A model generated the notes under the pieces. It ran no database searches, was not told the origin of the DNA, and worked only from the letters and a program-made list of their open reading frames with translations. From Catajapyx aquilonaris (taxonomy: Eukaryota), in the NCBI GenBank assembly GCA_000934665.2, contig JYFJ02004347.1, positions 1 to 32,950 of the forward strand: a stretch of DNA of 32,950 bases. Reading direction: 5' to 3'. Of the stretch, positions 7,402 to 32,066 are shown one piece after another (within the stretch, counting starts at the first letter, position 1; each line of letters begins with the position of its first letter). Both the position numbers and the translations under genes were made by a program.

Positions 7402-7467
7402 CTGAAAACAAGACATGCAACATTTCCAAGTTGGCCATAAATTACACAAAGTTTCAGCTAATGTTAC

Positions 7468-7631
7468 CTATCTGTGATCTTCTTGCAGTCATTGAGAACT
7501 AAATCTTCAATGTTATTGCACTGTTGGGCAAATGTCTTCATGGCCCCATCTCCAACAGACTGACATCCTCGCAGGCTGAGTTTTTTCAAGAAACCCCCAC
7601 ATCTCCGTGAAATATTCTCTACAACAGGGCC
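7468..7631 (-). CDS. FBXL20: FBXL2/FBXL20 orthologue exon (first LRRs)
   Basis: ctaag|GGC CCT...GAT AG|gtaac; GPVVENISRRCGGFLKKLSLRGCQSVGDGAMKTFAQQCNNIEDLVLNDCKKITD(S). AAG acceptor; phases are consistent with both neighbours. Confidence 0.94.
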
Positions 7632-7718
7632 CTTAGATATAAAACAAATTTAGAAACATCCCCTTCTGCCTTAACAATACCAAAAAGAGCACACCGCAAC
7701 CAAAAGAGGTGAACATAC

Positions 7719-7848
7719 CTCGATATCTGTCTGAAAGTCAAACAAGTCTATTCGTTGCCAGTTACTGCCATCCAAGGCGAGGACATTCCAGGCCTTGGAC
7801 ACTTGAGCACATCTGCACAACGATATCACATCCAGGTAGGAAAAAATC
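7719..7848 (-). CDS. FBXL20: FBXL2/FBXL20 orthologue exon (F-box core)
   Basis: ggcag|G ATT TTT...ATC GAG|gtatg; (R)IFSYLDVISLCRCAQVSKAWNVLALDGSNWQRIDLFDFQTDIE, near-identical to the FBXL20 F-box region. Confidence 0.96.
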
Positions 7849-8282
7849 CTGCCAATAAAAGAACTTATATAATCACATGGCAAAATTCACATTTTCATAA
7901 ATCAATGCTAAATCACTTGGCACCTAAAGTAGCAACTATATGTTTTCCCATCCAAATATATAAAAAAGAATGGATCCAATCCAGATCCTTTCACGCAAAG
8001 ATGCATCATCCAAAATCATTTCCTCTGAAGGAATTATAATCCTTTTGTCTAAACTCTACAACATTCAAAAACTTAGTTTTTAGAAACTATTTCCTCCAAA
8101 GACCAAAGACCCACTTGCAGCACTGGAGTAAACCATGGTGGGAGTATTTATCCTCCTCTTTGATTCAGGTCAACTATACTATAGGGGAGACCGGGCACAG
8201 TGGTCCATTTTTGAACATTTGAATTTTTATAAGAGTTCCTGTTATATCTACAGAGCCAATATTTTCCAACATGGTGGAGGTA

Positions 8283-8426
8283 CTATCGGGTTCAAATACT
8301 TTTGGCCACTTTATCCTGGTCTTCAAGCAACCCTTCACACACACACACACCTCCTTAATGTGGGGTCTGTGCGAAGGGTTGCTTCAAGACCAGGATAAAG
8401 TGGCCAAAAGTATTTGAACCCGACAG
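8283..8426. mobile_element. Small Tc1/mariner-type palindromic MITE
   Basis: TA|ctatcgggttcaaatacttttggccacttt...aaagtggccaaaagtatttgaacccgacag|TA. Confidence 0.85.
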
Positions 8427-8773
8427 TACATCTCTAGAAATTAATGATTATCAACAAGTCTCGCCACCTTGGCGGAACTTCCCCGTTGCTTCATCTGGCA
8501 CCTCACGGGGCCAGTTCAAACAGGAAAAAGTACTGATAAGACAGAGCTGCTGCTGGAGGAGTGAAAATCATTGCCGTCATTGATTTGAACGAGTGACACA
8601 GACGTTGGGTCTGCCAATTATTAATATAGGTAATACCTCATTATAAGGAGGTTTAGGGGATTATTTAAAACCACTCGAAACATCACTTTATTCATCATAT
8701 CACTTCTTCAATGAGGACAATGTTACCAAATGACAGGTAAGGAGTCGGGTGAGTGGTCTGCCGATTCAATATA

Positions 8774-8845
8774 CAGGGTGACTCTAAAGTCAGGATACAT
8801 AGGTAATTGGATTACATTGTTGGCTTCCAGTTGTGCCAACTCGAC
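8774..8845 (+). mobile_element. Half copy of the Tc1/mariner MITE found complete at 28582-28768
   Basis: TA|cagggtgactctaaagtcag...cataggtaatt.gatt...ttgttgg.ttcca.ttgtg.caact. Confidence 0.7.
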
Positions 8846-8877
8846 CTTTACTGACAACCAAACTTACTCTTTTTACT

Positions 8878-9342
8878 CCCCTGAATTTTGAAAATTTTTG
8901 AATTTTCTATTTCAGCTTGGTCTCTAGTGGTGTGCAAACATCACCTTGGCTGCTAATGCTCACGTTAGCATGATCAAAATACAAGCCAAAAGGTGATATT
9001 CCAAAGCCACAACACTAGCAGCTGGTCGCAGGTCCCCGGTCCTGATATCAGTGATATGTAAATGATTGATTACACTTCATTCATAAATTGCTACATAAAA
9101 TTGATTTCGAAGCATGTGAGGTGATGTTCTTCTAGTTCACGCCACCCAAGAGCGGGCTACAGTTACAGGGACGAGGGGCTGGGGACCTACAACCCACGGC
9201 CGGATGCTAGTGTTGTGGCTTCGGAATATCACCTTTTGGCTTGTATTTTGACCATGCTAATGTGAGCATTAGCAGCCGAGGTGATGTTTTCACCTATATA
9301 GGTTAAGCAGATTTAGAAAAGGCAAACATTTTTAAAATTCAG
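8878..9342. repeat. Palindromic TE remnant
   Basis: ~8878-9030 inverted with ~9198-9342 (caaaatacaagccaaaaggtgatattcc / ggaatatcaccttttggcttgtattttg). Confidence 0.75.
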
Positions 9343-10911
9343 GGCATGGCCAGAAATGGTGGACATCGGCCTGCGCCCATAAGCTCTGTAGGGCTTGCAG
9401 TGTAAAACAGCTGTAACTCGGTTAATTTTGATCGAATTAAGTTTATTTTCATTCCGCAATAAGATAATAGTATACCTACCCCGGCCTACACTGATGACTC
9501 AAAAAAATTAAAATTGCATATTATGTTCTGAGATAATTGGCTGCAGTTCCCTTATGGAGTTTTATGTGGCATTTTTCTCTTGGACCCAAACAAGCAACTT
9601 CCATTCGAAATATTTCATTGAGCTCAAAAGTGCATGAAATATAGGATGTGTGTGACAAAAAGCTGCTTCCATCCTTAAGATTGGTCCACAATGAAGTGAG
9701 ATAAGACAAATCTTATGACGCCCTTCAGTATCCACTGATCTGTGTGCATGGAGAGGATGGGTACCACATGGTGGGCCTCTTCTCCAGTGACCCCACAGCC
9801 GCCTGCTGGTACAGTCACCCATGCCAGATTGGCCATTTTGGGGTTGGGACATAACTAAGAGAGGTGCCAGTCTTTCAATGCTATTCCACATTTACTGCAC
9901 AACCTTCAATTTTGCATTATATACTTTTGCTGGATTTTTCAGGTGTATTGTGTATTTTCTTACAATCTGACATCGGGCCAATTCCACGTGAACGTGATCA
10001 CCTTTTGCACGAAAAAATTTGCCCGTCGATGAGTGTGAGATATGTTTTAATCCAGGTCAAGTTATGACCTTTCCCATAAGGATTTGGACCGCCGATGCGT
10101 GGTTACCTATCTACAGGAGCTAACTGCACTTGGATTTCAGTTAGAGGCGACCCCCTATTACATTTACATGACAACGTAAATGTATGATGTAATACATGTT
10201 TCATGCATGAAATTGTCTCCTCTTTTCGACAAAAATAGTCACTTTCTGATAGCGGTGCAAATTAATGTAACAAAGCGAGATTTTTGCAAACAAATGACAT
10301 TTTCAAAAAAGAGCCAAAGTCAAATGCCATTACAATGATATCAAAATACACTTGATAGTGTCCTCTATCAGTGGTACAAACAGAATTTTGGAATACGAAA
10401 TGGTTACGGAGCTATAGGCACTGACGTGGAGCGCTGCGCGAGTGCCCACACCCAAAGTATATAGAACTACCTGAGGTAGGGCGCTCCGGGCGCTAACCAA
10501 TCAGCAAAGAGGGGGGTGATGACGCGTCGAGAAAGCAAAATGTGGCGGGCCCTTTGAATTTCAGGCTCTCCGCATGGGAAAGATTCGCTCGCGCCTACCC
10601 TTCTAGTCCAGAATATTCAAGTACTAACCACTATGTACTATTCATGCTCCTTCAAGGTATATATGCCAGGTACTCACTTCATCTATTACTGTCGCCGTCC
10701 AGGTGGGTGGGCTCTGTCAGAGTGCACCTTGAGGTCAATGACACATGCCGGCGGAACAAAATAAAAACATCTTCCTGACATCCAAAATGACCAAATTTTT
10801 TTCTCCCTATTGGACACTCCTGAGGCAAGCATGTGACTATAAATGTGACTATAAACCAGGAGCACATTTTCGCACAATGAACGCCTTGTAGTTGTGCTGG
10901 CTCAGGTTTGA

Positions 10912-11303
10912 TGAGTGACTCACTGAGTCACGTATTGCTTCCTTATGCCGTCGCGTTCCATTTCAGTTCAGGGTGGTTCAGGGACAGACCACGGGCAGAC
11001 TGAAAGTGTTTCAGAGTAATCCACAGAGGAACGCGAGTGTCTTTGTCAGGTGAGTTTATACCAAAAATATGAAACGGCAGTGCATTGATTTTATTTATAC
11101 CGGCAAATAAAATCAGCCACAGGCTAATTTCCTAACATACGCGGCCTATTGACACTAAGCGGACCAACTTTGAAGGGCACAACAGATGGTTATAATAATA
11201 TTAACATATAGACATATGCGAGATATTGACGTTGCTCATGATTGCTTTCTGGCCTGCTAAAATGTAATTCGTAATATATCAACATTTGAATATCTGTTTT
11301 CAG
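10912..11303 (+). promoter_or_regulatory. Putative transposase promoter and 5'-UTR intron
   Basis: Paired AP-1-like TGACTCA/TGAGTCA at ~10916-10930, Inr-like TCAGTT at 10963, donor CAG|GTGAGT at 11050, acceptor tctgttttcag ending at 11303, 1 nt before the ATG at 11305. Motif evidence only. Confidence 0.5.
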
Positions 11304-11304
11304 C

Positions 11305-14019
11305 ATGGGGTCGTGTGCAATCGCGACGTGCCAAAATTATTCCAGAATAACAAAAAGGAAAGGTTTGGCGGTATCCTAGTTCACATTTCCCAAGGACCCT
11401 GACATCAGACGCGAATGGATGAGGAGGTGCAAACGTGCTGATTACCTCAATCCTGACACGGCCAGAATTTGCTCTGTCCATTTTGCCGAGGATGATTTGG
11501 AACGGGATCTAATGAGCGAATTGATGGGGACTCCAGCTACGAAGAAATTAAAAGCAGGCGCGATCCCGAGTCTGTTCCTGGTGCCTTTATCCAGCACTAC
11601 TGAAGCAATAGCTCCATCCGCCGGTACATCGTCCGACAGGGACAGTCTGTTGACAGGTGAGGCAGGCCCAGGGACATCAGAACCAGAGGCAGCCCCAGGG
11701 ACATCCATGCAGGGGAGATATGAAAGGCGACAGTGTAGGAAGCGTGCTTTAAGTAGGCTGGAAGAGCTATCGCCGAAGAAAAGAAGGACAAGAGATTCAT
11801 CTACATATGAAAAGAAGGAAACAGAGCGTCAACAAGAAGTAGCTGCCTTACAGTTTCAAGTGGCTACCCTGCAGAAAAAAATTGATGCCCAGGAGAAGCG
11901 CCATTTTGCCACAGTAAAAGCCCTGAAGTTGGAAATCAACACTCTCAAAGCATCCCACCGCAAACAAGAAAAGGAGGCAAAATTGGGTGCCATGCAAGAG
12001 GTCCACAAAATCCTGGAGCGGGTGTTTACACCAGGGCAAATAAAGCGCCTAATACAAGGAACCAAACGGGTAAAGTGGTGTAAAGAAGACATAATTGGAG
12101 CGCTGTCCCTTAGAAGCCTGAGCAAAAAGGCGTACATATTTTTAAGGGAAAAAAGAAATGTCCCCCTACCCGGTTTAACAACACTCAGGCAGTGGACTCG
12201 GTCCTTTCAATGCCATCCTGGACTATTGACCGCAGTTCTAGATGTCCTCAAGGGAAGTCAACTGCATCCAGATGTTTTCAGCCGTCGTTGCGTCCTATCC
12301 TTCGACGAAATGAACATAGATTCGAGGCTTGCCTACGATCATGAGAGCGACACTATTTTTGGACCACACAAAAATGTGCAAGTAGTCATGATCCGGGGAT
12401 TGCATTCCAACTGGAAACAAGTTGTGTACTACGCCTTCGATGAGACCATGGAGCAGAAGGTGTTAGAGGGAGTCATTTCAGCAGTAGAAGGTGCAGGATA
12501 CCATGTGGTGGCTTGCGTTAGTGACTTGGAGGGCAAGAACGCTCGCGTTTGGAACGCCCTCAATGTGACACCTACAAGTCCGTCATTTCCAAACCCCCAT
12601 GATCCTGCCAGAAAAGTGTGGGTGTTTGCAGATGCCCCCCATCTGCTGAAGCTCATCCGCAATCACTTCCTGGATGACGGGTTCATTTTACCCAGTGGAA
12701 GGAGAATAGGGAAGGATATTGTAAATCGACTCCTGGAGCAGGATAATGAGGAACTGAGGATTTGTCATCACATTCGTGATGATCACGTTCTTGTGTTCCA
12801 CCGTGACAGGCAGCGGGTGAGATTGGCCGCCCAATTATTTTCAAATCGGACTGCAGTTGCAATCACTTACCTTTTTCCGGAAGAAGTGGAGGTGTCCAAC
12901 TTTTTCCGCCTGGTGAACAATTACTTCGATGTTTTCAACTCGCGAATCCCAAATGACAGAAAATGCCCACTTAGGAGCGCTTACGGAAAATGTACTGAAC
13001 AAGTCCCAGTCTTACAGGACATGGCACGCACCTGCCGTGAACTTCACGTGGTCGGCCATAAGTCCATGCTGCCTTTTCAGCGCGGGATAGTCCAATCTAT
13101 CAATTCACTCAGGGGCCTTCAGGAAGACTTGCAGGGCACGTCCACTGCAACATACATTCTGACAGCGCGGCTCAACCAAGATGTCTTGGAGAACTTTTTT
13201 ACTCGAGTGCGTGGTTTGGGACATACTTATGACAATCCCCATCCAAGTGAGTTTAAGAACCGCTTGCGACTGCTGTTGTTGGGTGTTAATGCCAGTGATG
13301 TCCCATTAAGTGCCAGTGTGAGCGCACCAATTGATGAAGATGCTGTGGAGGAGGGGCCTTTGCTGACGGGCAGGATCCTCAAGTCTGGAGTTGATCCTCA
13401 ATTCCAAGAACTAATTAAGTCCGAAGAAGAACGCTGCGAGAAGTTGCTGGTGGACGACTTGGCGCAAGAATTGGGGATCATAATGACAGAGGCTGATACG
13501 ACCACCAGTGCGACCACCAGTGCGACAGTGGCAGACGTTCAGCCTCTTGGGCCGAAAGAGAAGGATTGCTCAATGGAAGGCTTGAAGTATCTTGCCGGCT
13601 ACATAGCTTTTCGTGCACGCAAGGTAGACAGCACTCTCGGGTTGAGGACCAGCCAGCGAAGTGGATCAAATAAACCACGGGACACCTGGATAGACGTAAT
13701 TTCAAAGGGGGGATTGTACAAGCCGAGGGAATGGTGGCTGGAAACTGTGCGGCAGTTTGAGGTGGTTTTTTGGACAGTTCATGGCAACTTTGCCTCAAAG
13801 CAAAATCACATCATCCGATTCCTCCGCGAACTGTTACAAAAAAAGTTCCCCAGGCTACACCCCGAAATTATCAGGCTCTACTCCAGGACCAGAACATTCA
13901 TCAGGATTCGTCACCTCAATGCGAGAGCAAGGAAACTGGCGGCGGCGAAGCGAGACGCAAAGAAGGCAAGGAAGTGGGCCCAATCTAGCAAGGCCCACCC
14001 ACCTGGACGGCAACAGTAA
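11305..14019 (+). pseudogene. THAP-domain P-element transposase (904 codons) with one in-frame TAG at codon 25; 866-aa ORF from 11419 remains open
   Basis: MGSCAIATCQN...AVS*FTFPKDP...W...ARICSVHF...LKAGAIPSLF (THAP C2CH), then a coiled coil, LPGLTTLRQW, catalytic-type motifs LSFDEM / VSDL / FADAPHLLKLIRN / LNQDVLENFF, QRVRLAAQLFS and C-terminal YLAGY. Confidence 0.93.
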
Positions 14020-14305
14020 TAGATGAAGTGAGTACCTGGCATATATACCTTGAAGGAGCATGAATAGTACATAGTGGTTAGTACTTGAATATTCTGGACT
14101 AGAAGGGTAGGCGCGAGCGAATCTTTCCCATGCGGAGAGCCTGAAATTCAAAGGGCCCGCCACATTTTGCTTTCTCGACGCGTCATCACCCCCCTCTTCG
14201 CTGATTGGTTAGCGCCCGGAGCGCCCTACCTGGGCAATTCTATATACTTTGCCCACACCTGCAGAAAAAAAGGAGCGGCCCACCTAGGTCCGTCTTCATG
14301 TCTCA

Positions 14306-14365
14306 GGTATAGGCTAGTATATAGGCTAGTATATAGGCTAGTATATAGGCTCAGTATCAGGCTAG
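14306..14365. repeat. 12-bp minisatellite (GTATATAGGCTA) about 4 copies
   Basis: Directly visible tandem repeat in the centre of the host palindrome. Confidence 0.85.
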
Positions 14366-15286
14366 GTGGAGATACCTCCCCGTTTTCTGGGTGTCAATAG
14401 CGTAAAACTAGGTGCATAGAATATACACTACAAGATGAGCCTAATTTTTGTCGCTTGGGTTGTGGGGCTACTCAGGGTAACCTTGAACAGGTGCTTTTAT
14501 CTACCATCGCACCATCGCAAAGAAAGCAGGAACTCATGCTCTGAAACGAAAGTTTGCACAGTAGCAGACCAAGTTTTTTTGGAACTATATTTCTTGAGTG
14601 AATTAAACACAAAGGACAAGCGTACACTATACCTGAGACATGAGACAGACCTAGGTGGGCCACTCCTTTTTTTCTGCAGGTGTGGGCACTCGCGCAGCGC
14701 TCCACGTCAGTACCTACAGCTCCGTAACCATTTCGTATTCCAAAATTCCGTTTGTATCACTGATAGAGGACACTGTGAGGTGTATTTTGATATCAATGTA
14801 ATGACATTTGACTTTGGCTCTTTTTTGAAAATGGCATTTGTTTGCAAAAATCTCGATTTTTGACATGAATTTGCACAGCTGTCGTAAAGTTAATATTTTT
14901 GTCAGAAAGAGGAGACAATTTCACGCATGAAACATGTATTACATCATGCATTTATGTTGTCATGTAAATGTAATAGGGGGTCGCCTCTGAGATCCAAGCG
15001 CAATTAGCGCCTGTAGATAGGCAACCACGCATCGGCGGACCAAATCCTTATGGGAAAGGTCATAACTTGACCTGGACTAAGACATATCCCACACTCGTCG
15101 ACGGACAAATTTTTTCGTGCAAAAGGTGATCACGTTCACGTGGAATTGCCCATCCGCAGTGTGTTGTTTGGACTTCATGCACATGCAATATGCTCCATGT
15201 TACAGGTATGCCAACATTGAATAGCCATAATTATTTCAAAGGTAACTACCAAATCAATGAGTTACTCCTATGGAAAAGTATTTCAT

Positions 15287-15316
15287 AACCCGAGCAACGC
15301 CGGGTATCCTGCTTGT
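15287..15316 (+). mobile_element. Helitron-like 3' end
   Basis: acccgagcaacgccgggt hairpin followed a few nt later by CTTG|T (canonical CTRR|T). The 5' end was not identified. Confidence 0.45.
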
Positions 15317-17617
15317 GACTAATTATTTCCAACCACAGAGGTTTTTATTGCCATATTTGGAGACACCGGTTGCTATGCTACCAGCTCGTTTTTTCCTCTC
15401 TTGATGCAATGGGGAAGTAGCCTTGGTCTGGGATTTGGGATTTTTGTTCATAACTAGCTAGCCCAGGCCTGTAAACCCACATTCCATCACTCTGTTGCAT
15501 CAAAATGACATTACTGGATAAATTACGGCACATTTAAAAGTGCCTTCAAAATTGGCGGGAAAAACGGGGCGGCCGGGTGGTGCCAATCGAAAGGGTACAC
15601 TGAAATGGCTGGTTGACTGCGAGATATGAGGAATTTGACTTTGAATTAACCGCGGACACGACGGAAAGCATTCGCAAGGCGGCTGTAGGCCATCGAGGTG
15701 GAGAAAAGGGGCCTTCATGTGCCGAATTCGGGTGACAGATAATTCCTACCAGTTGGCACCACTGTCAGCCCAGAAGCGGTTTGAGCGGCCTGGAATAAAT
15801 ACGCGCCCCGGCCGCTATCTTGCTCACGGAATGGGACGGTTTCTAACAACAGCGAAGCATTTTACGACAATGACGGGGCGCGTTCTATAACACCATTTTT
15901 GCGTTCATTTCACTTCGCGTGACGTCAACATTTTCTAGGCAAACAGTGACGTCACCATTTGCCTAAGAAAAAACGCCAATATCTCCGGAACTGAAACTGA
16001 TATCTTAAAACGGAATATGCCAAAAAAAATCCAAAAAATATGGGCGAATTTATTATGTAGTTTCCAAAATGAAGGCTACTTCCTCATTATAAGCTTTTTG
16101 CAGCAGCAGCTCTGTCTTATCTGTACTTTTGCCTGTTTGAACTGCCGTTGTGAGATGCCAGATGAAGCAATGGGGACGTTCCGCCCTTGTGGATAACCGT
16201 TAATTTCCAGCATTGTCCTCGTTGGTAATATACATCACTAATATATTCACAGGTAGTGCCATCCTTTTGGCTTTAATTTTTTTTAGAAGCTGCTCTATGC
16301 AAATGGACCACTGTACTCCGATGCCTGGAGCACAGTGGTCCACAAGTGATTGGGACCCATAATTCACACAAGAATGTTTTTTTTTTTGTTTTTAAGAAAA
16401 TTGTACATCTAACGCTAACCCCTCTAAATAAATAGGAAAAAAGAAAGGGGGGCCTTCTTTTACTGCAACGTGTGAACATAAAGTGAAACATCGTTTCTCT
16501 CCGGAATATAGACTTTGTTCTGCCACATCCATTGCTGAATGAACTTTATTTCATAATAGTGTCTGTCAAATCCATTAGCATAAAATCCTATGATGACATT
16601 AATTACTATACAGAGGTAAAAGGGGGCATGGTCATCCACAAAGAGGTGCTCACTGGTCCATGGACTACTGTGCCCCAGACGGGAGCAACTGATATGATGT
16701 TAATAATCATAGATTCCATTGCAAATGACGTTTCCAACTTTCCAGCATTTATGGGCAAAGGATGACACTATTCTGCAACATTTTTACATCAGGCCCATGC
16801 CCAGCATCTATGTCCGACATGGCATTTAAACTGTAGGTAAGAAGTTACTTCACTACCCTTCAAATAGCTTTCCCCTGATGCAGCAGGAGTGAAGGCATCT
16901 CACAGGTGGCTGTCATGTTGGCAAGAAGCACAATAGTGCCTTGTTTCACGAGGTACCAGATGAAGATGTTATTCCCAGTTCTTATATTTTCAAAACAGAA
17001 AGAACCACTGTGTCCCACTTTCCCCTACATACTGTAATAATAGCAAGAATAAAACCTGCACCCATCCAGCCTTTCGTCTTTCGACAAATATTTTGGCGGA
17101 AGTGGTCATTTGGAAGAATTTATTGTCCTTTGGAGAATTGTTTGGAGAATTTGAGAGAATTTTCCTTTGGATGACAATTTTGTTGGACAAATTGTCCATG
17201 AGCAAAATTTCATTCCACAAGATGTCATTAGATGAAAGTAGTTTGGAAAAAGCGATATGATACTCCCTACTCATCACAAACCCTTAAAAAATCAATCATG
17301 TTAACCGTGCAAGGGTCTGAGCCTTGGTAACTATTGCATTTTAGACATTCTCTTCAGCCACCATAGCTGCTCACAACCATGTGACCATCTTGTGAACCAT
17401 CACACTCATAGTAAAACCAATAAATCCAATCCACATATAGATGGATTGGTTTCTTGCAAATTAACCACTACTATCAAATAGTTCACAATAATTCGGGAAA
17501 TAATGATTCAGTGACTTCCATTGGGCGAAAATGCAATTCAGCAAATGCACTGTTTGAGGTGTTGGAAATTACATGAAAAAAAATAATAGACTTATGGATC
17601 AGATAGAAATGTAGTAC

Positions 17618-18099
17618 GGGAGATCGGGGTCGGTTGTAACACTTTTTAGTCTGGATTTTTAAATTTAGTTACATATGCATTTAGGCAAAGGTTTATGACA
17701 CTGTGGAAATAAGGCAACATTCCTCTTTGTAAAATTAACATTATAAAATCTTAAGGAGGGCAGGCGGAGTGGTGCTGCAGTAACGTATGCGCCCACGGAT
17801 GTTAAGGTCCCGGTTTCGATCCCAGCCCGGGGACACCCCCTTCATCTCGTGCAGAGTTCAGGGTCACCTCTGGCTTCGTCTGGGGTGGTATTTCCAACAG
17901 ACTAAACCACCCGGGGGAGTTCACTAAAAATGGCCACATAATGACATTGCACTGCACCTTGCACATCCCCTCCTGTCACCCTGCCCGTGGGCCCGGGCGC
18001 TACGTCATCAGGTCCAATGTATACTGTATATGAGTAATAATAAAGGTCCGTGCCATATAACTCGTAAGGAGTTCGTGCACTACCCGGATTATTATTATG

Positions 18100-18161
<62 letters not shown>

Positions 18162-18285
18162 ATCTTAAGGTTAAAAATTGATAGGTTTATGAATATTTTC
18201 CCAAGGCAAGGCAGTGTTACAACCGACCCCATCATAGGGGCGGTTGTAACAGAGGGCGGGGTTGCTTGTAACACAATGTCTGAAG
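17618..18285 (+). mobile_element. Left end of a TA-flanked pogo/Tc1-like element, interrupted by a SINE
   Basis: TA|cgggagatcggggtcggttgtaacac, with the same motif repeated (inverted and direct) at 18215-18274. A similar architecture is seen at 8183 / 16300-16345 (gcacagtggtcca). Confidence 0.55.
17757..18159 (+). mobile_element. tRNA-derived SINE (family B) with (ATT)n tail and 11-bp TSD
   Basis: B box-like ggtttcgatccc at ~17812; (ATT)n at 18088-18159; TSD aaatcttaagg at 17746-17756 and 18160-18170. Shares acattgcac...tgcac with family A. Confidence 0.85.
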
Positions 18286-19114
18286 GGGGAAATGTAATAT
18301 GGAAGAACAATTTACGGATAAGCTATTGTTTATCCGCACGTTAACAACAAGGCCTCCCGACGGTTGGCAACGTTGCGTCGCAAACAATCGGGTCCCTATT
18401 GATACTGCTGCATGGATACATGGAACTGTGCTTTATTTTTCTTTTTGGGCTTTTGGTGATTCAATTCTGGATTTTGAGGTGATTAAGTGGATGGAATAGC
18501 CCTTTGTCTTGGTATTGCTGTGTGGCTTTTTGTTATCGCAACAGTACTGTACATTGTTGAGGCCCTGCCAGGCACGGTACGTCGCCCGTGCATGATATTT
18601 TTTTGTTTTTGCGGAGCGAAAGCGGAGCTGGGCGCTTATTGTGGGTTTCTGTATCCGCAACATTTACTGTCCGTCTTGTGGCGCCGCAGGCCAACGAACG
18701 TTATTGTGGCTTTGCCAAGCGCGAAGTACACCTTCACACAGTCCGTTAAACCAACGAACTACATGACGCCAAGTTCCGCCCGCCACCACCCGGCTCTCCC
18801 CTCCAATCACGCCCACGACTCACTCTGCAGGCACACTACTGCACACGCTCAGAAAACACGGCTGGTGTGACATCATATTGTTTTTTGGGTTAACGGACTG
18901 CAGCAACCATCATGGCTTTCATATATCCCACCTTCATTAATTCTGTGGTCCTAGCACTCGTCTGAACGGTTCGCGTGGCAGGGGTAAGAAGACGCCCATT
19001 GTTATGCTCTCCCGGCAACCGGTTGTTTGCATAGCCAACATGTTTGAAGCACCGCGTCGCTATGTGCGGATAAACGATAGACTTTCCCAATTTACACCCA
19101 CTCATCTTCTAGAC

Positions 19115-19330
19115 CAGAGGCTCCCAAACTTTTTGAGTCGCGGAGCACTTTTCAGGAGAGATATTCGTGACGGAGCACTAACATCATTGAGCTGCGGAGG
19201 CATAAAAAATTTCGGGAGGCAAGGGGGGGGGGGGGGGAAGGCAGNGCAGTGCCAAATTAGGAACTCGGAAGGCGAAGGGCTGCCGCAGGCGAAAATTTTT
19301 TGGGTTCAAGATCACACAAGCTACTGAGAT
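19115..19330 (+). mobile_element. hAT (Charlie-type) left end
   Basis: TTCTAGAC|CAGAGGCTCCCAAACTTTTT: NTCTAGAN-type target and CAG..G.TCCCAAAC terminus. The right end was not found. Confidence 0.6.
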
Positions 19331-19676
19331 ATATACAGGGTGATCCAACTCTATGGCACCAACAGTTATTGGAAATATCGCGTAAGCTGCTTGTTTATAA
19401 GCAGGTCGTTGCTAAGAGATACTTTCTGGAGAATCGGGAATAGCACCTGCTGATATTAGGTCCAGTGCCCATGTAACAATATTACTGAGGGGAAAAAGGG
19501 TCATCCGTGGGAAACGGGCCTGTTCTGGTGTTCGCTGGAGGGTTTCACATGAGGTCACTAGCTGCCAAACCACAGGCCTAATCAGTCGGAACTGGACAGA
19601 CCCGGGTGTGTCAATAAATAGGCCTTCTGGTCTGTTCATTGTTGGCCGCTGTTGGCAAAACTGAGACAGGTCAACA

Positions 19677-21422
19677 CAGGGTATATAGAAGGAAGGGTAG
19701 AGCCATAACGGGCTGGGCCAATTATAGCGCAGCAGTATGTGACGTCACCGGGATGACAAAATTTCCCGCCAATTATGAAAGACAGGCTCTGGGCATTGGG
19801 CAACGGGCTTGTGCCCGCTTGTGCCTGCGATTAGAGACTGAAACTCAGGTGATGTGCCATTGTACGATGTATTCTGATTGAAGGGAATGTGCTCAGTACT
19901 CACCTCTCACTGTCGCCCACCACCTGGGCACGAATGAAGGTCGGATTGGACCCACTTCCGAGCCTTCTTTGCGTCGCCTCGCCGCTGCCCGTTTCTTCGC
20001 TCCTGCATTCAGATGGCGAATGCGAATAAATGTCCTGGTCCTGGAGTACAGCCTGATCACTTCAGGGTGGATGCTGGGAGACTTCTTTTGCAGCAATTGG
20101 CGAAGCAACAGAATCACACGCTGTTCTTTTGAGGCGAAATTGCCGTGAATAGTCCAGAACACCACCTCAAATTGTCGCACAGTTTCCAGCCACCATTCAT
20201 TAGGTTGGTATAAGCCCCCCTTTGAAATCACGTCAAGCCAAGTGTCGCGAGGTTTGGACCCACTCTGTTGACTGGTTCTTATGCCGAGTGTTTGATCTAC
20301 TTTTCTTGCTCGGAAAGCGATATAACCAGCAAGGTATCTCATGCCTTCGTTGGAGCAATCCTTTTCTTTGCGGCCAATAAGAGGCGTAACTACCTCCACT
20401 GAGCCATTGGTGATATCACTGGAGTCAGATACTCTGCTCTGCTTCTGCTCGGAGTCAATGCTGCCGATGTCCCCCTGAGCGCATCAGTTAGTGCACCAAA
20501 TGACGAAGCGATGGAGGATTCAGGGCCTTTGCTGACTCGTAAAGTGCTCCGATGTGGTGTAGACCCCAATTTGATTGTAACAATTGAGGCTGAGGAAGAA
20601 AATCGTAGCTTCTTTGAGGTGGACGACACAGCTAAAGAGTTGGGCATCACAGTATCAGACTCCAGTGATATCACCAATGACTCAGTGGAGGTAGTTACGC
20701 CTCTTATTGGCCGCAAAGAAAAGGATTGCTCCAACGAAGGCATGAGATACCTTGCTGGTTATATCGCTTTCCGAGCAAGAAAAGTAGATCAAATAACACT
20801 CTGCATAAGAACCAGTCAACAGAGTGGGTCCAAACCTCGCGACACTTGGCTTGACGTGATTTCAAAGGGGGGCTTATACCAACCTAATGAATGGTGGCTG
20901 GAAACTGTGCGACAATTTGAGGTGGTGTTCTGGACTATTCACGGCAATTTCGCCTCAAAAGAACAGCGTGTGATTCTGTTGCTTCGCCAATTGCTGCAAA
21001 AGAAGTCCCCCAGCATCCACACTGAAGTGATCAGGCTGTACTCCAGGACCAGGACATTTATTCGCATTCGCCATCTGAATGCAGGAGCGAAGAAACGGGC
21101 AGCGGCGAGGCGAGGCGACGCAAAGAAGGCTCGGAAGAATAGTGGGTCCAATCGGGCCTTCATTTGCACCCAGGTGGTGGGCGACAGTGAGAGGTGAGTA
21201 CTGAGCACACTCCCTTCAATCAGAATACATCGTACAATGGCACATCACCTGAGTTTCAGTCTCTAATCGCAGGCACAAGCGGGCACAAGCCCGTTGCCCA
21301 ATGCCCAGAGTCTGTCTTTCATAATTGGCGGGAAATTTTGTCATCCCGGTGACGTCACATACCGCTGCGCTATAATTGGCCCGGCCTGTTACGGCGCTAC
21401 CTGTAGGTTTCTATATACTTTG
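19677..21422. mobile_element. Non-autonomous foldback P element made of two inverted transposase 3' ends
   Basis: TSD GGTCAACA at 19669-19676 and 21423-21430; termini CAGGGTATATAGAA / TTCTATATACTTTG. Arms 19677-20433 and 20651-21422 both encode EGMRYLAGYIAFRARKVD...WWLETVRQFEVVFWT...RTRTFIRIRHLN, homologous to the C-terminus of the 11305-14019 transposase. Confidence 0.94.
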
Positions 21423-21594
21423 GGTCAACAGGCAGCGTTCTTTAGTTACCAGTAAATAAATAGTTCATGTAGAGTCAGGACATGCCTTACTCAGGGGGCC
21501 TGTTCGAGGGCCGCCCAAGGGCTTCTAGGGTTCTAACAGTACAGTCTGCATTGGGCATTCTCTCATTAATTGGTACATGCATGGGCATTGGACC

Positions 21595-21844
21595 CAAAGA
21601 GTTCTGCTATTATATAATATAATACCTAGAGGAGGTACTAGCCCTATCCTTTTCCATTAGACAGGCTGAGGCAGCGGCCATCTTGTTGGAGGTAATATTG
21701 TTGTTCTAACAGTTGTCTAGCAACTGGGACGACAACCGTTAATGACAACTGGGACGACAATTAGTTCAATAATGTCAGGCATCCGCCATTGTGTTGGAGG
21801 TAATATTGTTGCCTGCCTCACATTTCAGCCCGAGTGCCTCCTCT

Positions 21845-21885
<41 letters not shown>

Positions 21886-21897
21886 CAGAACGCTTTG
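21595..21897. mobile_element. 303-bp P-type MITE with (TA)n inside its inverted ends
   Basis: TSD ATTGGACC at 21587-21594 and 21898-21905; CAAAGAGTTCTGCTAT...ATAGCAGAACGCTTTG; inner IR atacctagaggagg.act. Confidence 0.85.
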
Positions 21898-22359
21898 ATT
21901 GGACCTAATATCAGCAGGTGCTAAGACTGGTAACTAAACAACGCTGCCTGTTGACCTAATATCAGCAGGTGCTAAGACTGGTAACTAAACAACGCTGCCT
22001 GTTGACCTATTATTATCAGTTGCGCCAACTGCGGCCAACAATGAACAGACCAGAAGGCCTATTTATTGACACACCCGGGTCTGTCCAGTTCCGACGGATT
22101 GGGCCTGTGGTTTGGCAGCTAGTGACCTCATGTGAAACCCTCCAGCGAACACCAGAACAGGCCTGTTTCCCACGGATGACCCTTTTTTCCCTCATTAATT
22201 GTTACATGGGCATTGGACCTAATATCAGCAGGTGCTATTCCCGATTCTCCAGAAAGTATCTCTTATTGATCTCTTAGCAAAGACCTGCTTATAAACAAGC
22301 AGCTTGCGCGATATTTCCAATAACTGTTGGTGCCATAGGGTTGGATCACCCTGTATATA

Positions 22360-22929
22360 CAGGGTGGTCGGTAAATGGCGCACAAGCTTCAGGTAGCGAG
22401 ATTCCTTGTGAAAAACCAGTATATGGAAGTGAAGGTCCTATTGCTCTACGAGGCCTGGTTAGGGCTCACGAGGCCTCCAAAGTTTGGGCCAAATCCTGAC
22501 GTCACATCCGCCCGCGAAATTCAAACACTCCCGTATCGCTACCGTACGCGGCGTGTTGCCATGTTGACATCCTCCACATGTTCACCAAACAATGGAACCG
22601 TATAAACTCGCCGGGACGTTGCCAGGAACTCGGCGACGACAGTATGGCAATTCCTGGCAACATCCCAGCCAGTTTATACGGTTCCATTGTTTGGTGAACA
22701 TGTGAATGATGTCAACATGGCAACGCCTAGCAACACCCCGTGTCCGGTGGCGATACGGTAGTGTTTGAATTTCGCGGGCAGATGTGACGTCATGATTTGG
22801 TCCAAACTTTGTAGGCTTCGTGAGCCCTAACCAGGCATCATAGAGCAATATGACCTTCACTTCCATATACTGGTTTTTCACAAGGAATCTCGCTACCTTA
22901 AGCTTGTGCGCCATTTACCGACCACCCTG
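22360..22929. mobile_element. Tc1/mariner-type fully palindromic MITE
   Basis: TA|cagggtggtcggtaaatggcgcacaagctt...aagcttgtgcgccatttaccgaccaccctg|TA; arms pair to within ~20 nt of the centre (~22640). Confidence 0.92.
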
Positions 22930-22950
22930 TATAATCATATAAAATGACGA

Positions 22951-22953
<3 letters not shown>

Positions 22954-23014
<61 letters not shown>

Positions 23015-23046
23015 TAATAATAATAATAATAATGATAATAATAATA
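22954..23046. repeat. (AAT)n microsatellite flanked by a 17-bp direct repeat
   Basis: atataaaatga(c/t)gagta at 22937-22953 and 23047-23063. Confidence 0.9.
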
Positions 23047-24008
23047 ATATAAAATGATGAGTACGCTTTAGGCGAAGTGTGAAATGAGCGCGAGGGTCTC
23101 TGGCGGGATTGGAGAATCTATGACTTTTGGCTGCTGCGTAACCGACTGCAGGTCAATTCGCTGCAATCAAATTTGCTGATGGGATTGGCTGATGGTGGGA
23201 TGGGTGACTCTTGCATGCGTTTGGAACCCCTGTTGCCAAGAGAGGCGCATCCTACGTGCATCACCAAATGGTATGTGGACGTTCGTCCCCGCAGTTTGGC
23301 CCACAATTTTCACCCCCTTTACATATTGGCCTCTGAGGTATTCGCCTGGGCTGCTCAAAAGTCATGGCTCAGACTCACATCATTTCTAGAGAGGCCTTGC
23401 ATGTAGCCTGGCAACGGCGGGGGCGGGTAGTGGCCTGACTGGCTCGGAATGGAAGGGCAGAAATGAAATTTTGCACTCTCCTGCTTGGGTGAGGCCTTGG
23501 ACACACTAAGCGGAATCGCCGCGACGGAATGTCCGGCGTGGTCCGCTCAACAATCTCAAACACATGGAAATAAACGGGCTTCTGTCGGGATAAGACACAC
23601 ACGCTGGTTTTTTCCTCGTTCTGTCGAACACCAGTGGAAGACACAGCGGAAAAAATCCGCAGTTTTCCGCCAGGGACAATAATCCCACTGCAATACATTG
23701 ATTCCAGCGGAGGAAGGCCACACTACTGACGGAGAATGCAGGTTCGCTGGCCCTGCACCGGGGGGATTGGTAGCTGAAAGGGCTGCAAGCCGGCAGTACG
23801 GTTGACGGAAATTACGCTCACAATCGAGCAAAACACTTCTTTCTGTACGTCTGGTAGACGGAGATCAGGAAATTGTGCCTTTCTGTGCATGTGGCCTACT
23901 CTCGACCCTTCGGCTGGGAAATGAGAAAATTTTCCGTACTCGCCAACATGAACTTGGATTCAGGGAGACTGAAAATGCATTGATATCCCATCGTAAGGCC
24001 CTGCCTGC

Positions 24009-24150
24009 ACTTCGAGTTATGGAGAACTTCGAGTTACAGAAATTCCAGTTAGGGAAGTTTATTTCCTATTATTTTACATTGGGACCAACCAAGGTCATAA
24101 TTTTCTGTGACTCATAGAGAACTTTGACTTATAGAAGTTTTGCTGTTGTA
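24009..24150. mobile_element. Degenerate Tigger/pogo-like right end
   Basis: Repeated ttcgagtta motifs ending in ...gacttatagaagttttgctg. Confidence 0.4.
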
Positions 24151-25832
24151 CAATGCGTCTCTCTTGGCAACAGGTGTTCCAAACACAAGCATGTGTCACC
24201 CCCTCCCAACACAACAGCGAACTGACTCGCTGGCGAAAAGAATATGTAATGAGGGCGAAAACTCAGGAAAGTTCACCAAATCGTTCGAAATGACAAACCG
24301 ATCAACCGCAAGAGCACAATTAACAGTAAATCAGTGAGCATGGATCTTGGCAAAGCCACAATAATGTTCATTGGCCCGCGGCACCACAAGCCAGAAGATT
24401 AATGTTGTGGACACACAATCCACAATAAGCGCCCACCTCGCTAATGCTTGCAATTAACAAAAATGATTGGGCTAATTAAAGGACCCTGCACTGACAGGGC
24501 ACAAAGAGCCCTCTGAACTGCAACACCTCTCTCTCTCTCNCCCCCCGCCTCCCACCACTTTGTCGCACAGGAAAGATCAGCCCCATTTTGAAAGTTTTGA
24601 ACGATAGGGCCATAACCGTTTGACAAATACACTAAGTTATTCCCGATTATCTGGGAGCAGATCACTCAAAAAATTAGTTAGAAAAGAAAAAAAAGTCTAA
24701 AAGAATGTCAATATGTCTGGCAAACAAAGAAATGCAACAGACTTTTCCCAGAAGTCAAACTCAAAATCTATGGTACGTTTTATTATTTTGATTAAAACTT
24801 ATTGAGAGCAGCATACAATATGTGCAGTAGTATATTAAAAACCTATGAATAGCTCATTTCTAGGGAATCTAGGACCATTTTCGCATTTTCCGATTTTCTG
24901 TGTTTTCGGATTTTCTGAGCACACCTGTGCATTCTTACCTGCCTGTCACCTTCATTTTTAACTTTGGCTCTATATGAAAAGTACTGATCAGACACAGACC
25001 ATGTCATCACACACTAGTGCATTAGTACCACTCATAAAGAATGAGATGACTATATGGACGATCAGTTTATTCATTTCTGTTCCCAACCCCTGGATCACCA
25101 GCATGTTTGAAAGGGTCTTGGGGAAGGCCGGGTAGAGGGAATGAAAATAAAGAAAAAAAAGAAGAAAACAAGGCAGAGAAGGAAAATTGTAGAGGGGAAA
25201 TTAATCTCAAATCTACGTAAGGGTAATTCCTAGACAACACCCTCCATTTTTTTGATTTTGATGAAATTTTGCATGCAGGTCCCAAACTGGATGAGTAAGT
25301 AAACACCCAATTTTCAGACACCTACATTCAATAGGTCAAGAGTTATGCCATGGTCAAAATTGAAGAAAATCTAAAACATGGACTCAAAAATCGCATCATA
25401 TCTCGGTGAGTACTTACTCTACCGCGACTTTTCATATGTCGATAGATTCGCAATAGTGTGGAGCAGACGATGGATGCATCAAAAGAATTTTTGCAGTGCA
25501 GGAAAATCGTCATTATCGCGAGGTCAAGTTTTGTGACCTTAGACCATGCCCATGTCTGTCGGTCGAAATGCTTGAGAATAAAAACACACTGATACCCACA
25601 CCTCTGTTCCAAACACAGGTATAAGTTTAATTTTAATTAGGATATGTCTGCTGGGCGAAAAAAAATCCAGACTACTACTGTGTCATTGAAATCTTCGATG
25701 TCTCCTGCAATCTCGATCTTATTGATTAGCAGATAGGTATTTTTTCCAGGGGTTAATTAGGTGACTAGGAAACCCCTCGAGCTAGGAAAATTTAAAATTT
25801 ACACCATTAGAACGTATGTGGTCCAGCCTATA

Positions 25833-26421
25833 CAGTGTGTTTCAGAGTCACGGGTCAAGTGTGCGCAAGGGGGTGGGGAAAAATCGTAGGTGGCGACAAC
25901 CCCGGTTGGTTTTATAAGACAATTACAATTACGAGAGTACCGGTAAGCAATTTATTTATTACGGCCGTACGGCGTGACGTCACATCCTTTCTGTATTCGA
26001 ATTGACTGGCGTGGACTGGCACATTCACTGGGTTGAAACTGTTTGAGCGGCTTTTTAGCCTTGTGGGTTGCACTGAAAAAGGTGCTCTCATGCTACACCG
26101 GCAGGGTACTGTACAACGTAGTGTACTACTGTACAGTACTGTGTACAGTATCCTGCCGGTGTAGTAGGAGAGCGCCTTTTTCAGTGCAACCCACAAGGCT
26201 AAAAGGCCGTTCAACCAGGTTCAACCCACTAGTGCACCTGCCAGTCCGCACCAGTCAATTCGAATACAGAAAGGATGTGACGTAACGCTGTATGGTCGTA
26301 ATAAATAAATTGATTACAGCCGTATTTCTAATTGTTTTATAAAACTGACTGGGGTTGTCGCCACCTACGATTTTTCCCCACCCCCTTGCGCTCACTTGAT
26401 CTGTGACTCTGAAACACCCTG
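25833..26421. mobile_element. Tc1/mariner-type fully palindromic MITE
   Basis: TA|cagtgtgtttcagagtcac...gtgactctgaaacaccctg|TA; arms pair to the centre at ~26127. Confidence 0.9.
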
Positions 26422-26469
26422 TACTGTGAGATATTGTAATGATGGGATGGGATAATGATAAGATGGGAT

Positions 26470-26612
26470 GAGGGGGAGGGGTCGTGCAGGTCCCCAGAGG
26501 TCGAGGAAAGATTGTACATAGGGTCGCGATGAAATAAGGGTGGGAAAACTGCTGGACAGTTAGGATAAATGTTTCGTCCATAAAGTCGTCTCGTCCCTTA
26601 TCAGCAGTACTG
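26470..26612 (-). mobile_element. Half copy of a TA-CAGT element; second half copy at 32073-32215 (+)
   Basis: Reverse complement tacagtactgctgataag...tatggacga...tttat.ct.act.tccagca matches 32071-32140. Confidence 0.6.
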
Positions 26613-26799
26613 TACAGCACATGTGATCATCTCTATAAGCAAGTTAAATTCGTAAAAATTGAATGGATGAAATTCACTTTGGAACAAGTCATTGATTGAT
26701 TTAGATTTTTGCAGCACATTCACCTTGGACCAAGTTCAAAAGACCACGAAGATGGGCACATTTCTTGGATCATCTTGAAGAGTTAGTATTTGAACTTAC

Positions 26800-26867
26800 C
26801 TTAAAAGCAATTCCTTTGGCAATTTTTTGTTGATTAAAGCTTCATCATCTGAGAAGACACGAGTCAG
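26800..26867 (-). CDS. FBXL20: FBXL2/FBXL20 orthologue, most 5' coding exon found (start of F-box)
   Basis: Minus strand reads tttctactttcag|CTG ACT CGT...TTA AG|gtaag = LTRVFSDDEALINKKLPKELLL(R), matching the FBXL2/20 motif DEAxINKKLPKELLLR. The phase-2 end joins exon 7719-7848 in frame. Confidence 0.92.
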
Positions 26868-27441
26868 CTGAAAGTAGAAAAGACCTTTTCAAACTCATTG
26901 TTCATACCAACAGTCCACATATAACTTACTACTCACCACCACAAAAACCACCACATTACCTGTTTAACAAGTTTCTACTTATAAACATTATACAGTTTGC
27001 TGTTAAGGCCTTCTTACTTACATGATAAAATGGCCATCATAACTGGTCACACTGCACAGTGTGGCCAAACGTGTGAATGCTTGGACAATGGCTCCCTCTC
27101 CACGCATATGTCATGATGTGGTCACAACTTTCCTTAAATTTAACCTTTGACAGCGAAATTTTTTCGGACTGTTTTTTTCTTTTCTTGATGAAAATTTGCA
27201 GTAGGAGTGATATTAATAAGAGCAAAAACAATCCCTGGAGTGAAAAAAAGGGTAGTAAGACCTCTGTGGCGGAATGAAGGTACTGACACAAGGCAGGCGC
27301 ACGTAAGACCTTCACCAATTGATTTATGCTGTGCCATAGGTCTTACTCAAGCAATTCTAAAATTAATGCTCATAAAATATCCTTTCTGAACCCCCCATTA
27401 TAACCCGATAAGGGTCTGTAGGGGGGTGGAATACCACCATA

Positions 27442-27991
27442 CAGGGTGGACCAACTTCAAGTGTCGTTTTATAACGGCGATTAATAGCAGTGATTTTGCG
27501 ATGACGTAGCAGCGACGTGTAAAATGTCCCACTTCGGCGCCATCGAAAATATTAGCGGCCAATAGCAGCACACATGTAATCAACCCTGCTGCTGGGGACA
27601 AATGTGTGTTAGCGGGGACGGTCTGGTTGGCCTCCCAATAGGCCGTGGTTTCTTTGCGACCCTGAGGAGTACCGGTTTGAATGCTCTGCAGTCTTGCTGA
27701 TCGAATGCAGGTTTGGGCATTTCTTGGTTGGTGGTTAGGGGGCACCGCACGTGCCCTGTTTTACACCGCGTGTTGCGCGGGCGAGGCAGCCTTCTTTAAG
27801 GACTGCCGGATTGGCATTGGTGCCGCATGTGGCATGTGGTTGCACAGGGTTCATTACATGTGTGCTGCTATTGGCAGCTAATATTTTCGATGGCGCCGAA
27901 GTGGGCCATTTTACACATCGCTGCTACGTCAATCGTAAAGCGCTTCTGTTAATAGCCGTAACAAAACGACACTTGAAGTTGGTCCACCCTG
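27442..27991. mobile_element. Tc1/mariner-type MITE with ~140-bp TIRs
   Basis: TA|cagggtggaccaacttcaagtgtcg...cgacacttgaagttggtccaccctg|TA. Confidence 0.9.
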
Positions 27992-28014
27992 TATTTCCCT
28001 CTAATTGTCTGTAA

Positions 28015-28275
28015 TTTTTTTCAATAACCGTGCAGGGAAGAAAGGACATATAGGGTAGGGATGGCGATTTTTGGGGAGGGAACATGGGTGCAGGTGCAAT
28101 GTTATTGTGTCGGGCCATGTGCTGTTCCCCGGGAGGTTAGGTTGCCAGACACCTCCAAGGCGTGGGTCAGAGACCCTCCTGACACAGGCGAAAGGTAAAT
28201 CCCCGGTGGGGTTCGAACCTGGGACCTTTGACTCAGCAAGCCGAGACGTTACCATCTCTGCCACCGTACCTGCTC
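28015..28275 (-). mobile_element. tRNA-derived SINE (family A)
   Basis: A box TGGCAGAGATGG, B box GGTTCGAACCC; collinear with 1510-1750. Confidence 0.88.
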
Positions 28276-31268: not shown

Positions 31269-32066
31269 CAAGACTCGCTCCGAAAGTTATGCCTCCCTTT
31301 TATTGTGTTGGGCCACGACATCAGAGGAGATGCTTGATGATATGGCAGTAGAGCTTGCACCTTCCCGCCAATAATGTGTCAGTTTTGTCTCCGTGTGGTA
31401 GGTGGCAGCTGAGTAGCAGTCCAACAACATGGAGTCTGTCATTGATGTGTGTCAGAAGCAGAGGTGTGTCATGGAATTCCTCTTGGCGGAGAAAATTGCA
31501 CCGATTGATATTCACCGCCGCTTAGCGAAGGTGTATGGAGACCGAGCACAGATATGCAACTCCGTACACAGATCCCTGGTTGTGATACGCCGATTGGTGC
31601 GGATCAGCTGATCGAGGCACGCTTCATTTTTTGAGGTGACAGCTGTGCTGGGCTGTCCGGACCGTGGCTTGTCACTCGCATTCGCATCGATTACACCACT
31701 GCTGAAACGTGCCACCCACCTCCTCACTGTGCTCACATCAACTGCTCGGTCTCCGTACACCTTCACTAAGCGTCGGTGAATGTCAATCTGTGCAATTTTC
31801 TCCGCCACGAGGAAATCCTTGACACACCTCTGCTCCTGATGCACATCAATGACAGACTCCATGTTGTTGGACTGCTACTCAGCTGCCACCTACCGCAAAG
31901 ATTAGCCTTTGGCCTATTCACTGTTCCTTGACCTACCGCACGGAGACGAAACTAACACGTCATTGGTGGGAAGGTGCAAACTCTACTGCCATATCATCAA
32001 GCGTTTCCTCTGATGTCGTGGCTCAACACAATAAAATAGGAGGCATGACTTTCGGAGCGAGCCTTG
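31269..32066. mobile_element. Foldback mariner derivative made of two inverted 5' ends (galluhop/Mariner1_GG-like)
   Basis: TA|caagactcgctccgaaagttatgcctcc...aggcatgactttcggagcgagccttg|TA. Both arms start MESVIDV.Q.QRCV..FL.AEKIA.IDIHRRL.KVYGDRA; the minus copy continues VDVSTVRRWVARFSSG...DKPRSGQPST...IRTNRRIT (mariner HTH). Confidence 0.92.

Follow-up and report, generated by a model that had tools for sequence, protein, structure and literature searches.

A P-superfamily transposon derivative from Catajapyx aquilonaris with inverted arms of transposase coding sequence, probably one copy of a small mobile family

The window analysed here is a stretch of 32,950 nucleotides (nt) from Catajapyx aquilonaris (GenBank assembly GCA_000934665.2, contig JYFJ02004347.1, positions 1 to 32,950 of the forward strand) that holds exons of an FBXL20-like gene and, inside one intron of this gene, two DNA transposons of the P superfamily. 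The principal subject of this analysis is the hairpin element at 19677-21422, a compact unit of 1,746 bp in which two inverted arms of ~765 bp flank a loop of 211 bp; the second transposon is a longer, near-intact neighbour that belongs to a different subfamily. We consider it likely that the hairpin element belongs to a small family of non-autonomous transposons of the P superfamily, in which the inverted ends have been extended inward, into the transposase gene. The key features of the locus are summarized in Table 1.

Table 1. Features of the hairpin element, its target, the neighbouring P-superfamily element and the host intron
Feature	Coordinates	Strand	Basis
TSD, left copy GGTCAACA	19669..19676	.	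direct reading, identical to 21423-21430
Left arm, outer part: non-coding terminus, begins CAGGGTATATAGAA	19677..19904	-	alignment to reverse complement of 21198-21422
Left arm, inner part: inverted copy of the last ~177 transposase codons	19905..20436	-	protein match and arm alignment
Loop: single-copy transposase coding sequence, ~70 codons	20437..20647	+	open frame and protein alignment
Right arm, coding part: last ~182 codons and stop codon (21195-21197)	20648..21197	+	open frame and protein alignment
Right arm, 3' non-coding terminus, ends ...TTCTATATACTTTG	21198..21422	+	sequence and arm alignment
TSD, right copy GGTCAACA	21423..21430	.	direct reading
Left arm of the very-high-copy foldback repeat hit by the insertion; resumes at 21431-21453	19330..19668	.	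BLASTN, contig depth
Right arm of the foldback repeat hosting the insertion	21977..22359	.	repeat finder, BLASTN
Neighbour: near-intact P-superfamily element of another subfamily; ORF 11305-14019	9976..15151	+	protein and domain matches, repeat alignment
Intron of the FBXL20-like gene holding both P elements; flanking exons 26800-26867 and 7719-7848	7849..26799	-	GT/AG and frame continuity
TSD, target site duplication; ORF, open reading frame.

The right 986 bp of the hairpin element is a P-type 3' end that comprises 252 C-terminal transposase codons, a stop codon and a non-coding terminus of 225 bp, and the left 760 bp repeats, in inverted orientation, the outermost 775 bp of this right-hand piece. 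The two arms are accordingly 760 bp (left) and 775 bp (right) long, with ~530-550 bp of each consisting of coding sequence. A repeat finder detects three pairs of complementary blocks, 19675-19956/21141-21422 (92%), 19971-20292/20795-21116 (99%) and 20291-20436/20648-20793 (98%), which BLASTN merges into one inverted alignment of 19681-20436 with 21418-20648 (95.2% identity over 771 columns); a global alignment of the arms reaches the tips at 19677 and 21422. The first-pass annotation, which was made from the sequence before the present analysis, had recognised the inverted repeat correctly and placed its inner limits (20433 and 20651, with a 217-bp spacer) about 3 nt away from those in Table 1.

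Both arms encode the transposase C-terminus, as had been proposed. The plus-strand frame 20403-21197 is open over 264 residues and, from residue 13 (nt ~20439) onwards, matches residues 631-872 of the neighbour's open reading frame (ORF) with 65% identity (E 1e-92), and the minus strand of the left arm encodes 196 residues with 77% identity to residues 709-848 of the same ORF (P0001). Two 5-nt deletions near 19955-19975 shift the left-arm frame relative to the right arm. Together, the arm alignment and the protein matches confirm that the element derives from a P-type transposon and consists of transposase coding sequence in inverted duplication. Because the loop is itself transposase coding sequence that runs into the right arm, it is not a foreign spacer.

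The element is CA-initiated at both tips, CAGGGTATATAGAA and, on the other strand, CAAAGTATATAGAA, and 12 of the 14 terminal nt are alike. It is flanked on both sides by the 8-bp target site duplication (TSD) GGTCAACA; a TSD of this length is the hallmark of P in Drosophila and of zebrafish Pdre2, according to the excerpted text of PMC10983969. The insertion hit a foldback repeat, the left part of which (19330-19676) pairs with 22000-22359 at 91.4% (BLASTN), and the partner arm contains, at 21977-22007, a paralogous, uninterrupted version of the target with a single GGTCAACA. This paralogous empty site shows that 19677-21422 came as one discrete piece and duplicated 8 bp, in agreement with the earlier claim of P-type ends and a clean TSD. 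By its coding homology, its 8-bp TSD and its inverted ends, the hairpin element belongs to the P superfamily and is non-autonomous.

The foldback repeat itself (19330-19676 and 21431-22359) includes internal 51-nt direct repeats at 21889-21990, and its word depth of 10^4-6x10^4 in the DNA contigs suggests a family of very many copies, provided that unique depth is ~20-50. TTA/ATA trinucleotide microsatellites at 18089-18163 and 22927-23061 bracket the hairpin region.

The structure could conceivably be non-mobile, being either an error of the assembly or an inverted duplication that originated locally. Palindromes are known to trip assemblers and long-read library preparation, and the flanks 19330-19676/22000-22359 are inverted as well, which might at first sight suggest one large local palindrome. 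The candidate palindrome that would include the flanks was rejected: the two inverted repeats are not concentric, with centres at ~20838 (flank repeat) and 20542 (hairpin), and the flank repeat belongs to a different family, of enormous abundance. Moreover, the exact 8-bp TSD together with the intact paralogous target is the product of a transposase-made insertion, and contigs from three sequencing runs span both loop junctions at a depth far over that of unique-looking contigs. We therefore regard a non-mobile origin as extremely improbable.

The depth of public contigs aligned to 19300-22400 provides an estimate of copy number. Five sequencing runs, from two studies and none listed as RNA, were found, four of them representing one DNA sample; the estimate comes from three runs (X1-X3) of one DNA sample, perhaps the assembly's own, and the run of the second study (X5) yielded contigs only on the flanking foldback repeat, hence being uninformative on the hairpin. 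In the three runs, a 271-nt contig spans 20405-20679, thus covering the loop with 32 nt of arm on either side, at a depth of 405 in X1, 295 in X2 and 245 in X3, where it consists of two pieces (depth 237 and 246) split at a 4-nt indel. The corresponding collapsed arm contigs have depths of 1011, 829 and 547, and the arm:loop ratio of 2.2-2.8 is that predicted for a hairpin family. Where joints and contigs run out of the region into unlike sequence, the depth is only 17-48, and if this range, uncalibrated against a gene known to be single-copy, approximates the depth of one copy, the loop junction is present in ~8-18 copies.

A junction depth about 10 times that of the unique-looking contigs suggests that the junction is common to a small family and that the hairpin moved as a unit; on this evidence and that of the paralogous empty site, the earlier suggestion of a mobile unit appears sound. 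The loop contig passes the junction without forking, which makes the hairpin the predominant form of this sequence in the sample. Between this contig and the window copy there are 3 substitutions and a 4-nt gap, which places the window copy near the family norm. Given that read-derived contigs cross the loop junctions, an assembler artefact is ruled out, with room left for a peculiarity of the individual sequenced. Two observations point to insertion sites elsewhere, namely, a joint onto 19677 from another part of the flank repeat (depth 46) and a 675-nt contig (depth 48 and 37) that runs from the right end into unlike sequence. Depth is greater again over the terminal ~150 nt, at about 1,560-2,220 in the bin 19716-19819, suggesting that shorter derivatives with the same tips exist besides the hairpin form.

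The superfamily assignment draws on the neighbouring element. Its ORF at 11380-14019 (879 residues) contains, by Pfam, the THAP domain, the P-element helix-turn-helix (Tnp_P_element), the TNP-like RNase H N-terminal domain and the GTP-binding insertion. Residues 176-637 match the Drosophila P transposase 6p5a_A (E 2.5e-85), and residues 733-850, the equivalent of the hairpin arms, match the C-terminal chain 6p5a_B (E 2.6e-4). The alignment with the fly P transposase includes the motifs FDEM, VSDL and LNQD..E.FF, the acidic residues of which we take to be those that are catalytic in the fly enzyme. A further 24 codons upstream in frame, starting with a Met at ~11305, contribute the first cysteines of the THAP finger and are parted from the rest by an in-frame stop codon at 11377-11379, inside the finger. 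"Near-intact" is thus a fair description, yet this copy is broken.

The neighbour also has inverted ends of ~740 bp (9976-10712 and 13993-15151), which at their inner edge already reach into the ORF and cover its last 9 codons. A piece that has 63-nt inverted ends of its own breaks up the right end at ~14252-14678. The inner block of the inverted ends is 97.7% alike and the outer one 91.4% (p 7e-4), and the neighbour's ends show the same tendency to grow inward as those of the hairpin element. No 7- or 8-mer is common to 9860-9980 and 15140-15280 that could represent a TSD, and the tips beyond 9976 and 15151 are mutually unlike, so that these two positions are provisional boundaries.

The two elements lie 4.5 kb apart, and over 13505-13985 the neighbour has 74-75% nt identity to the hairpin arms (BLASTN). 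The shared 23-nt stretch singled out in the first-pass annotation does exist, as the sole common word of at least 21 nt in each arm. The annotation's "related near-intact element" is a member of a different subfamily and has an in-frame stop codon; at this level of identity, with one 23-mer per arm, it is a poor target for silencing. Pfam yields no match for the 264-residue hairpin piece alone. A search of the protein collection with this piece as the query, restricted to longer proteins, revealed no full-length parent close to identity, its 2 matches among 2,871 candidates being at 34-36% identity.

Long inverted ends in both elements raise the question of whether the extension is adaptive, with long arms aiding synapsis or transposase recruitment through a DNA cruciform or snap-back, as proposed for Galileo. 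The long terminal inverted repeats (TIRs) of Galileo hold multiple THAP binding sites, as presented in the excerpts of PMC3688188 and PMC3573991, and the ~740-bp ends of the neighbour are a parallel within the same window. In the hairpin element, however, the recruited part is coding sequence, which there is no reason to expect to carry binding sites, and GCCAATT, found twice in each sub-terminal region, shows no enrichment in the window (11 occurrences against 7.3 expected). This motif was considered as a shared sub-terminal binding site and discarded, 11 of 100 shuffles reaching 11 occurrences, which is not significant. Furthermore, hairpin copies appear to number only about ten while the terminal ~150 nt are deeper, so shorter derivatives with the same tips are apparently more successful. 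An adaptive extension therefore seems very unlikely to us.

The origin of the hairpin element may be pictured as follows. The inverted duplication would have arisen once, through fold-back priming or template switching during the repair of a break inside an autonomous element. In fold-back priming, a break in the transposase gene would be resected, the 3' tail would snap back ~210 nt inward and synthesis would then copy the strand as far as the element end; in the template-switching variant, the switch would occur between long inverted ends, in the course of gap repair after excision. Both variants fit the architecture and are forms of abortive gap repair, which gives rise to deletion derivatives in P and Ac/Ds. 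As the two ends of the product should be usable by the transposase, the hairpin unit would then have been mobilised in trans by the transposase of its own subfamily.

The distribution of the differences between the arms bears on this scheme. The terminal 58 nt contain 11 substitutions and a 2-nt indel, compared with 13 substitutions in the other 702 nt, and the clustering of the substitutions at the tip is significant (Fisher p 2e-7). A second cluster of differences is at 19929-19975, with 99% identity between the two clusters. High-depth contigs carry the right-arm letters at 19930-19973, so this second cluster is private to the left arm of the window copy. A two-step model with an old outer arm and a young inner arm was rejected as fitting only partly, the differences being clustered in the terminal 58 nt and at 19929-19975.

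Several points weigh against a small mobile family that descends from one inverted duplication. The clustering at the tip is unforeseen by a single fold-back copy followed by neutral decay, and the left tip may be either a genuine 5' end or one converted from another copy. Copy number is expressed through contig word depths in one DNA sample (three runs), with an uncalibrated single-copy depth, and the signs of further insertion sites are one joint and one 675-nt contig. Finally, the protein collection showed no autonomous parent that could supply the mobilising transposase.

The host gene is on the minus strand, and its splice sites follow from GT/AG dinucleotides and reading-frame continuity rather than from transcripts. 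The exon 26800-26867 encodes ...DDEALINKKLPKELLL(R), with GTAAGT after it; beyond 18,951 bp of intron, the exon 7719-7848 is preceded by AG and resumes with (R)IFSYLDVISLCRCAQVSKAWNVLALDGSNWQRIDLFDFQTDIE. Two further exons with leucine-rich repeats (LRR) are located downstream on the same strand, at 7467-7649 and 7206-7457. Pfam detects an F-box-like domain (E 3.8e-13) in the host exons, and LRR_6 is over the cut-off for the 7206-7457 exon only. The intronic position asserted for the hairpin element is confirmed by F-box and LRR exons on either side, on the minus strand, with GT and AG at the inferred ends. The name FBXL20 presumes correspondence to the human protein, the F-box/LRR architecture being what Pfam covered.

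A transcript through the hairpin, the host precursor messenger RNA (pre-mRNA) included, would fold into a duplex of ~740 bp, a plausible substrate for Dicer or ADAR. The predicted RNA fold of 19677-21422 has an energy of -1567 kcal/mol, compared with -544 +/- 9 for 8 shuffles; on either strand the prediction is ~-1570 kcal/mol, with 740 pairs between the arms and a longest unbroken helix of 218 bp. The window as a whole contains 75 inverted-repeat pairs, and with so many long inverted repeats a hairpin in the host pre-mRNA is not exceptional.

These properties bring up the proposal of the first-pass annotation that the element is a silencer akin to Mu killer of maize. In the version weighed here, transcribed copies, at this locus within the FBXL20-like pre-mRNA, would yield long double-stranded RNA (dsRNA) that is converted into small interfering RNAs (siRNAs), or serves as an input for Piwi-interacting RNAs (piRNAs), against the 3' part of the transposase messenger RNA of the element's own subfamily, repressing the autonomous elements that mobilise it. 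The anatomy resembles that of Mu killer, with two ends of one kind and two incomplete transposase copies in inverted arrangement, as described in the excerpted text of PMC3440606, so the likeness of shape pointed out earlier holds; it also resembles that of composite Ac insertions, which give rise to dsRNA and 21-24-nt siRNAs in the excerpts of 10.1101/2020.01.07.897926. The intronic position makes transcription along with the host gene probable, the predicted duplex is very stable, with helices of up to 218 bp, and the apparent existence of several copies makes the expression of one of them likelier.

The same proposal meets a number of difficulties. The adjoining element, with its 74-75% nt identity and single perfect 23-mer per arm, is hardly targetable, and the protein collection contains no near-identical intact target. 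At least 4 other long inverted repeats are found in the same window, among which this structure does not stand out. In animals, duplexes within introns generally undergo editing by ADAR more often than dicing. Even for Mu killer, the read-through hairpin model is contested in the excerpted text of PMC3440606. On balance, a Mu killer-like silencer appears unlikely, and the default state of the hairpin element is, in our judgement, likely to be that of a selfish, probably neutral derivative, its dsRNA potential being a by-product as opposed to a selected silencing function.

The window contains several other repeats. At 3537-5481, five concentric inverted-repeat pairs, 93-99% complementary, form a near-palindrome of ~1.9 kb with a 90-nt centre, and the long frames of this region have no Pfam match. 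Inverted arms of about 250-290 nt at 31298-32036 surround a frame of 120 residues (31515-31874, minus strand) that encodes Mos1-type helix-turn-helix domains (HTH_48, E 3e-8); it is probably a Tc1/mariner element that has long inverted ends and has lost internal sequence. Three inverted repeats with arms of 100-200 nt (89-93%) and short spacers, at 22356-22933, 25831-26423 and 27439-27994, are like miniature inverted-repeat transposable elements or foldback elements, and the first two of these share the intron with the hairpin element. The direct repeat copies at 1530-1751 and 28053-28271, 85-89% alike and with a transfer RNA-like core discernible by eye, look like a short interspersed nuclear element (SINE). 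Apart from the mariner helix-turn-helix remnant and one sub-threshold match, Pfam searches of 14 other long frames of the window found nothing relevant.

Among the known systems, the '2RT' copies of Galileo are similar in having a P-superfamily transposase, inverted ends of hundreds of bp that are longest in non-autonomous copies, and mobility as a unit. According to the excerpted text of PMC3573991, Galileo TIRs have a mean length of 668 bp and non-autonomous copies extend them by inverted recruitment of TIR-adjacent internal sequence, so that the sequence just inside one TIR recurs, inverted, at the other end and lengthens the repeat. In the same text, Galileo differs in that it recruits the non-coding F1/F2 sequences, of which the copy whose TIRs are longest has up to 121 bp, as against ~530 bp of coding sequence in the hairpin element, and in that it is flanked by 7-bp repeats, unlike the 8 bp that the hairpin element shares with P proper.

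The TIRs of the P element of Drosophila are 31 bp long. Together with zebrafish Pdre2, P elements share with the hairpin element the THAP-type transposase, the 8-bp TSD, CA-initiated ends and the occurrence of internally deleted copies; Pdre2 differs in its 13-bp TIRs and 12-bp sub-terminal repeats, and arms of coding sequence are not described in the excerpted text of PMC10983969.

Mu killer, in the excerpts of PMC3440606, is likewise internally deleted, its two ends being of the same kind and its two incomplete transposase copies being joined by an inversion, and transcription from a host gene can run through it. It differs in belonging to the Mutator superfamily of a plant, in duplicating the 5' part of mudrA (~1.3 kb) and in being treated as a locus, with the silencing shown genetically, whereas the hairpin element duplicates the 3' part of a P transposase gene and is apparently multi-copy, with a TSD. 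The Ac/Ds composite insertions, as covered by the excerpts of 10.1101/2020.01.07.897926, are also inverted duplications that result from the transposon's own aberrant activity, and are transcribed into dsRNA from a flanking promoter or one of the element. They are, in contrast, hAT elements of a plant produced by alternative transposition, large composite loci and not a compact mobile unit, and siRNAs and heritable repression have been demonstrated for them.

In animals, long inverted repeats feed dsRNA into RNA interference at hairpin RNA and endogenous siRNA loci and through the read-through dsRNA of Tc1 in C. elegans. Some of these hairpin RNA and endogenous siRNA loci stem from the inverted ends of transposons, and the class is defined by sequenced small RNAs. 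A keyword search of open-access text found no description of a mobile animal transposon with transposase-coding arms, which in itself does not prove absence. The hairpin element is thus a P-type element outside Drosophila with inverted ends that are largely its own transposase coding sequence, apparently multiplied in that form, and the lengthening of its ends is the process seen in Galileo.

By what means genomes come to recognise a DNA transposon as active in the first place is still under study. Mu killer and the Ac composites, the triggers documented best, are accidental, self-made inverted duplications, both in maize, and the hairpin element represents the same accident in an animal P-type family, with a product that retained usable ends and apparently multiplied. 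An improbable and more far-reaching possibility would be a transposable silencer in an animal, a P derivative that spreads a hairpin of its own transposase to about ten sites. If this were true, each new copy that landed in transcribed DNA would be an additional source of dsRNA directed against the autonomous element, and the family would be a mobile counterpart of Mu killer that couples its amplification to its own shutdown. If small RNAs from the arms exist, the family would provide a natural system for studying how self-made hairpins start silencing in an animal, and for comparing a mobile trigger with a fixed one. Otherwise, the hairpin element extends the Galileo-type inward growth of P-superfamily ends beyond Drosophila and into coding sequence.

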